Positions 33,053 through 33,195 of a stretch of DNA of 64,000 nt are shown here, one piece after another. Under the pieces are notes generated by a model, which saw only the letters and a program-made list of their open reading frames with translations, was not told where the DNA came from and did no database searches. The first letter of the stretch is position 1. Each line of letters begins with the position of its first letter. The stretch comes from Escherichia coli (GTDB lineage Bacteria; Pseudomonadota; Gammaproteobacteria; Enterobacterales; Enterobacteriaceae), in the NCBI RefSeq assembly GCF_003019035.1, contig NZ_CP027447.1; one strand, given 5' to 3'. Position numbers and translations under genes: made by a program.

Positions 33053-33069
33053 AATTGGCCCTACCAATT
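33053..33069. promoter_or_regulatory. LldR operator-like palindrome (O1)
   Basis: AATTGGccctaCCAATT, matching the LldR/PdhR-type operator as I remember it; about 200 nt upstream of lldP. Confidence 0.55.
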
Positions 33070-33178
33070 CTTCGCTTATCTGACCTCTGGTTCACAATTC
33101 CCCAATTAAAACTCACATCAATGTTGCTAATGCATAACATTTAGTTAACTATCCATTGTCATTATCCCTACACAACAC

Positions 33179-33195
33179 AATTGGCAGTGCCACTT
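33179..33195. promoter_or_regulatory. Second LldR operator-like site (O2 candidate)
   Basis: AATTGGCAgTGCCActt with central palindrome TGGCA-G-TGCCA, about 75 nt upstream of the lldP ATG. Confidence 0.35.

Follow-up and report, generated by a model that had tools for sequence, protein, structure and literature searches.

Which regulator reads the two palindromes that stand upstream of the L-lactate permease gene lldP, and does the adhesin gene that ends shortly before them have any bearing on lactate use? The question arises from a 64,000-nucleotide stretch of Escherichia coli chromosomal DNA (the window), for which a preliminary description had proposed two LldR-type operators around the lldP promoter, abutting an inserted adhesin island from which read-through could influence lld regulation.

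LldR boxes upstream of lldP

A 421-bp query over the LldR sites matches E. coli strain SCU-301 at 100% identity; the gene order given by RefSeq for that strain runs mtlD-mtlR-yibT-yibL, a DUF3251 gene, a YadA-like adhesin gene, and then lldP-lldR-lldD-trmL. The lld genes of the window are on the plus strand. They comprise lldP (33268..34923; 551 aa, identified by the SCU-301 annotation and by orthologues that are 86-100% identical in 80 species), lldR (34923..35699; 258 aa, SCU-301 annotation), and lldD (35696..36886; ORF list and SCU-301 annotation), which encodes the quinone-dependent L-lactate dehydrogenase. The cognate regulator LldR belongs to the GntR/FadR subfamily, and its gene is intact in the window, displaying Pfam GntR and FCD domains and no internal stop. 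The lldR gene of the EhaG-bearing strain 2014C-3655 (L085:9094-9943) is a frameshifted pseudogene according to RefSeq; if that annotation is correct, the strain would have intact operators yet be without LldR control.

Upstream of lldP the two palindromes lie exactly where they had been placed before. The first, O1 (AATTGGCCCTACCAATT, 33053..33069, strandless), appears in the published tables of both LldR and PdhR boxes. The second, O2 (AATTGGCAGTGCCACTT, 33179..33195, strandless), is the weaker box and is found in the LldR box table as its reverse complement AAgTGGcactgCCAaTT. The two are spaced 126 bp start to start, O1 beginning 215 nt and O2 89 nt before the lldP ATG, and both match the experimentally defined LldR box, a 17-bp palindrome AAnTGGTCnGACCAnTT. 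The yibL>lldP spacer of K-12 gave the strongest LldR peak in the gSELEX study of Anzai et al. 2023 (PMC10272880), where the lldP LldR boxes are given as AAtTGGcCctACCAaTT (12/14 to the consensus) and AAgTGGcactgCCAaTT (10/14) and are stated to be consistent with the pair reported by Aguilera et al. 2008. Binding of LldR to K-12 DNA was demonstrated there by gSELEX and gel shift, together with LldR-dependent induction by lactate (PMC10272880). The O1 sequence was also cited as LldR-binding by San Martin et al. 2013 (PMC3582500).

Both boxes of the window are identical, letter for letter, to the two published K-12 boxes. The identification as LldR-type operators and the ranking of the second site as the weaker are thus borne out by the comparison with published LldR sites. 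Judged by this identity, the pair is almost certainly the two LldR operators of the E. coli lldPRD promoter, with binding established in K-12; no evidence against this identification was found. The LldR operators of lldP are an already published element, re-found here. Compared with K-12 lldPRD, the window has the same 17-bp boxes, the same 126-bp spacing, the same place upstream of lldP and the same operon, and differs by about 10 SNPs and 1 indel, all outside the boxes. Between the hairpin upstream of O1 and the lldP ATG, the differences from a K-12-like strain fall at 33044, 33048 (the indel), 33100, 33128, 33132, 33150, 33153, 33241, 33242, 33246 and 33254, with none in O1, O2 or the ArcA-box match discussed below. 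The control region of lldP in the window is a strain variant of the K-12 element; what differs is the DNA farther upstream, which is an adhesin module in the window and yibL plus REP sequences in K-12.

Short palindromes can occur by chance in AT-rich intergenic DNA. Matches to AATTGGN5CCAATT at up to two mismatches are indeed no commoner in the window than in shuffled windows (3 against 4.6 expected), a level at which the pattern loses its informativeness. At higher stringency the picture is different: one exact match is present where 0.01 is expected, and two matches at up to one mismatch where 0.38 are expected, these two being exactly O1 and O2. The two best sites of 64 kb therefore sit 126 bp apart directly upstream of lldP. 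Comparison across species refutes a chance origin, which has next to no likelihood left. In a set of 80 lldP loci from different Enterobacteriaceae species, O1 and O2 boxes are both present in 80/80. The spacing, scored in 80 sequences (the window and 79 loci), is 126 bp in 57/80 and 125 bp in 19/80, hence 125-126 bp in 76/80, with a range of 123-127 bp, and the distance from O2 to the ATG varies from 57 to 94 nt across loci. In the column-conservation profile of the 80 species, conservation reaches 95% or more in the O1 core and in the TTGG and CCA parts of O2. It starts abruptly at O1, all DNA upstream being unconserved, and by this measure the lld control region has its left boundary at O1. 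Within the species, a 40-mer containing O1 is found exactly in 4891 of 5426 complete E. coli genomes, and one containing O2 in 4982 of 5426. The comparative data are a separate, phylogenetic line of support for the two operators and for their spacing of about 12 helical turns. Two further stretches between O1 and the candidate -35 hexamer, TTCACAA (33091-33097) and CACAT (33114-33118), are at least 90% conserved in the 80 species.

The lldP start is the ATG at 33268 and not the in-frame upstream GTG at 33247 given in the ORF list. A Shine-Dalgarno sequence, AGGAG (33256..33260, plus strand), was located by inspection 7 nt before this ATG, and the block is at least 90% conserved in the 80 species. 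The sequences TGCAGG (33253-33258) and CCTGCA (33262-33267) are candidates for pairing that could cover it. A 17-codon upstream ORF (33219-33272), whose TGA stop overlaps the lldP ATG as ATGA, is probably not functional; 54 of the 80 species have no ATG-initiated ORF here, the overlapping stop is missing in 11, and the peptide is not conserved.

Proposed looping, the lldP promoter and further regulators

The sites had been described as bracketing the likely lldP promoter, in keeping with a two-operator looping model, and the literature agrees on both counts. The -35, the -10 and an ArcA operator all lie between O1 and O2, and repression is thought to need looping with the correct angular orientation (Zuniga et al. 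2021, PMC8689689). A tetramer made of the LldR dimers on O1 and O2 sequesters the promoter until lactate frees the dimer on O2, whereupon the dimer on O1 turns activator (Goers et al. 2017, PMC5412874). For the window we infer from the literature that LldR binds and loops the DNA, that it has a dual role, and where transcription starts. Without lactate, an LldR dimer would occupy each box, and the dimers would associate and loop out the 126 bp holding a weak core promoter, leading to repression. L- or D-lactate would open the O2 complex and the loop, after which LldR still bound at O1 would act as an activator. The pyruvate sensor PdhR would also bind at O1 and repress, ArcA-P bound between the boxes would keep the promoter off without oxygen, and the hairpin 24 nt upstream of O1 would serve as the intrinsic terminator of the adhesin gene and delimit the control region on its left.

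At 10.5 bp per turn, 126 bp corresponds to 12.0 helical turns, a spacing that fits a same-face looping constraint and is no proof of looping. Its conservation could also reflect fixed distances from operator to promoter rather than looping as such. The looping systems of lac (O1/O2/O3), gal (OE/OI), deo and ara likewise have two operators around a promoter, with a spacing that, as in lldP, is an integral number of helical turns; in lldP this spacing is kept across species. The lldP system differs from them in having a GntR/FadR-family regulator with a dual repressor/activator role, and its looping is taken from the literature. The LldR proteins of Pseudomonas and Corynebacterium and the GdhR protein of Neisseria are also FadR-subfamily GntR regulators that bind short palindromes and control lactate permease or dehydrogenase genes, but their operator sequences and architecture probably differ from those of E. 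coli lldP.

A search of the LldR literature for footprint coordinates or a transcription start returned neither. The published operator coordinates, which we take to be -105 to -89 for O1 and +22 to +38 for O2, would be self-consistent with a start at 33158, and a start there would imply a weak TTGCTA-16-TAACTA promoter. The candidate -35 hexamer is TTGCTA (33124..33129, plus strand; TTGCCA in K-12), a tentative assignment; its TTGC block is conserved at 95% or more in the 80 species. A generic sigma-70 scan placed no promoter between O1 and O2, so the -35 and -10 assignments are those that we infer; the missing match fits a promoter that depends on an activator. The window differs from K-12 at 33128 in the candidate -35 and at 33150 and 33153 in the candidate -10 region, and because of these changes basal lldP promoter strength may differ from that of K-12.

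O1 has a double role as a PdhR box, a point missed by the preliminary description. The box is a 13/14 match to the PdhR consensus AATTGGTnnnACCAATT and lies under a PdhR gSELEX peak in the yibL>lldP spacer, and lldPRD mRNA is up 3.3-fold in a pdhR mutant (PMC7660256). On these grounds O1 could be read as mainly a PdhR operator rather than an LldR operator, the pair then being no dedicated LldR device. The same spacer is, however, the strongest LldR gSELEX peak, both of its boxes are assigned to LldR, and induction by lactate depends on LldR, whereas no PdhR box has been reported at O2, and PdhR, unlike LldR, is encoded elsewhere, outside the lldPRD operon. It is very improbable that PdhR alone accounts for O1. 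The PdhR and LldR readings of O1 are complementary rather than exclusive, since related FadR-subfamily regulators can share a box.

The sequence between the boxes also carries a candidate ArcA site. The ArcA box, which we take to be the 15-bp direct-repeat consensus GTTAATTAAATGTTA, is matched at 14/15 by GTTAACTAAATGTTA (33135..33149, minus strand), which is partly conserved and overlaps the candidate -10 region of the lldP promoter. With one mismatch, this is the only match at up to two mismatches in the 64 kb window; 0.24 are expected, and 22 of 100 shuffles had at least one match. From its sequence and position, it may be the site of anaerobic repression.

The predicted terminator upstream of O1

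A hairpin separates the adhesin gene from O1. The terminator scan found a single terminator-like site in 32800-33400, at 32994..33029 on the plus strand, where a 13-bp stem with 6 G-C pairs (32994-33023) and a 4-nt loop are followed by TTTTCTTT up to 33029. The stem starts 24 nt beyond the stop codon of the adhesin gene, and the fold reaches -22.4 kcal/mol (z-score -4.8), with 0 of 200 shuffles as stable. Hairpin and TTTTCTTT together are predicted to form a strong intrinsic terminator of the adhesin gene. O1 starts 24 nt past the T-tract, just as the preliminary description had it. A GC-rich hairpin precedes O1 in most species examined, whatever gene lies upstream. In species with yibL directly beside lldP these are mostly other, unrelated hairpins, and in adhesin-bearing Citrobacter loci the hairpin after the adhesin gene is related to that of E. 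coli.

These observations bear on the suggestion that adhesin transcripts read through into the lld control region and couple adhesin expression to lactate use. The adhesin gene and lldP are co-oriented, and the distance from T-tract to O1 is short. Set against this are the predicted strength of the terminator and the hairpin found before O1 in most species, by which insulation looks like a general rule; K-12-like strains that have no adhesin gene also keep the hairpin behind a co-oriented yibL. Coupling by read-through is quite improbable, and as a corollary of the operator finding it is pure speculation. Since adhesin-less strains keep the hairpin, the island alters what precedes the insulator and not the insulator itself. 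Any comparison of lldP activity with and without the island would be confounded for the same reason, because the island-less strains keep a terminator about 23-24 nt before O1.

The same DNA, read on the opposite strand, resembles a small RNA family. The full model of Rfam STnc380 (RF02055) matches 32985-33094 on the minus strand, and adhesin-bearing Citrobacter loci (C. braakii, C. youngae) score 102-109 bits at the equivalent site; minus-strand Rfam matches are placed at L019:6722-6828 and L074:6721-6828. An antisense small RNA homologous to STnc380 could on this basis run through O1 and the hairpin. The match in the window, however, scores 28.9 bits (E about 1e-3), far under the gathering score of 60, the minus-strand hairpin is followed by no U-tract, and the scan gave no promoter-like site on either strand. 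Moreover, the two helices of the model coincide with the terminator hairpin and the O1 palindrome, both of them symmetric as DNA. Such an RNA is highly improbable in the window, and the family itself may model DNA-level palindromes rather than an RNA. No match at gathering level was obtained in the adhesin-less loci of Salmonella arizonae, S. diarizonae and Citrobacter (L013), nor in the adhesin-bearing locus of E. wuhouensis, and a literature search for STnc380 returned only STnc3800.

The adhesin module in the yibL-lldP spacer

In most Enterobacteriaceae the gene to the left of the lld control region is yibL, which encodes a ribosome-associated protein (26376..26738, plus strand; Pfam DUF2810, the SCU-301 annotation and synteny in the 80 loci). 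In the window an adhesin module stands between the two. Its first gene (27297..27980, plus strand) encodes a SadB-like inner-membrane lipoprotein of 227 aa, annotated as DUF3251. The protein has the lipobox LLAGC, gave no Pfam match at E up to 0.001, and in a search of PDB sequences matched 4c47 ('inner membrane lipoprotein', E 7e-69), which we take to be SadB. The second gene (28024..32970, plus strand) encodes a trimeric autotransporter adhesin of 1648 aa, displaying Pfam ESPR, YadA_head, YadA_stalk and YadA_anchor domains; by these and by annotation it belongs to the EhaG/UpaG/SadA group of positional orthologues. Other E. coli carry at the same site an adhesin annotated as ehaG, upaG or YadA-like. 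H-NS may repress ehaG and upaG, a point without mention in PMC7247748 and on which nothing here rests. The SadA protein of S. enterica is the positional orthologue of the EhaG/UpaG adhesin (PMC7247748).

Whether the module was gained or lost depends on the level of comparison. Matches were obtained in 5420 E. coli genomes, in 4150 of which they cover the 3' end of the adhesin gene. The remaining genomes with a match, about 23% and K-12-like, match only from 32992 on, i.e. from the hairpin. A K-12-like strain has yibL, then REP sequences, the hairpin and a near-identical control region. Its L001:2905-3040, set against 26739-33029 of the window, has neither the sadB-like nor the adhesin gene and keeps the terminator and REP. 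Because these are kept, the K-12-like state reads as a deletion, and at the K-12 yibL-lldP junction the EhaG/UpaG locus has probably been deleted, the adhesin terminator, judging from sequence comparison, staying behind in the scar. Across the family, yibL directly precedes lldP in most of the 80 loci, and the adhesin module occurs only in Escherichia (L005-L007), C. braakii, C. youngae and E. wuhouensis. The earlier term 'inserted island' therefore holds only in part: at the family level the module is patchy and the spacer holds varied cargo, but within E. coli the K-12 state is deletion-like. The spacer may fairly be called an accessory cargo site, but not a place where the module was inserted into E. 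coli as compared with K-12.

The spacer between yibL and lldP differs in cargo among Enterobacteriaceae. Varied spacer ORFs are seen in L054, L065, L061 (about -6000 to -1040 from lldP), L053, L056, L081 and L034. In the E. hormaechei group, ORF sizes and order look like those of chaperone-usher fimbrial operons, and in Franconibacter the spacer holds a small two-gene, putatively toxin-antitoxin-like pair. Past the yibL stop codon similarity is lost immediately, and this holds for adhesin-bearing strains compared with one another too (window/UpaG type versus EhaG type).

In the stretch from the adhesin stop codon to the terminator, REP/BIME sequences are present in some strains and absent from others. 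EhaG, UpaG and K-12-like strains have 70-130 bp of REP just before the hairpin (about 690-830 in L002 and L003; L001:2905-3000) and the window has none. Of a 10-bp direct repeat, CTAAGGGCAA, that lies on either side of the REP in the EhaG strain, the window contains one copy, at 32992-33001.

Extending these observations, the few dozen bases between the terminator and O1 could be a family-wide docking point for surface-adhesion cargo. Escherichia and certain Citrobacter and Enterobacter would carry there the module of trimeric autotransporter adhesin and SadB, the E. hormaechei group its chaperone-usher fimbriae, and linkage by read-through or by an STnc380-like antisense transcript would be possible. 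There is only a slim chance that this is so. If true, adhesin expression would be linked to the sensing of lactate and pyruvate in the gut, via low-level read-through or an antisense transcript crossing O1.

The operator pair of lldP is a published regulatory module of biosensor grade, and its recovery here is of small value as a discovery. With identical boxes at an identical spacing, what is known in K-12 of control by LldR, PdhR and ArcA would be transferable to the adhesin-bearing strain.
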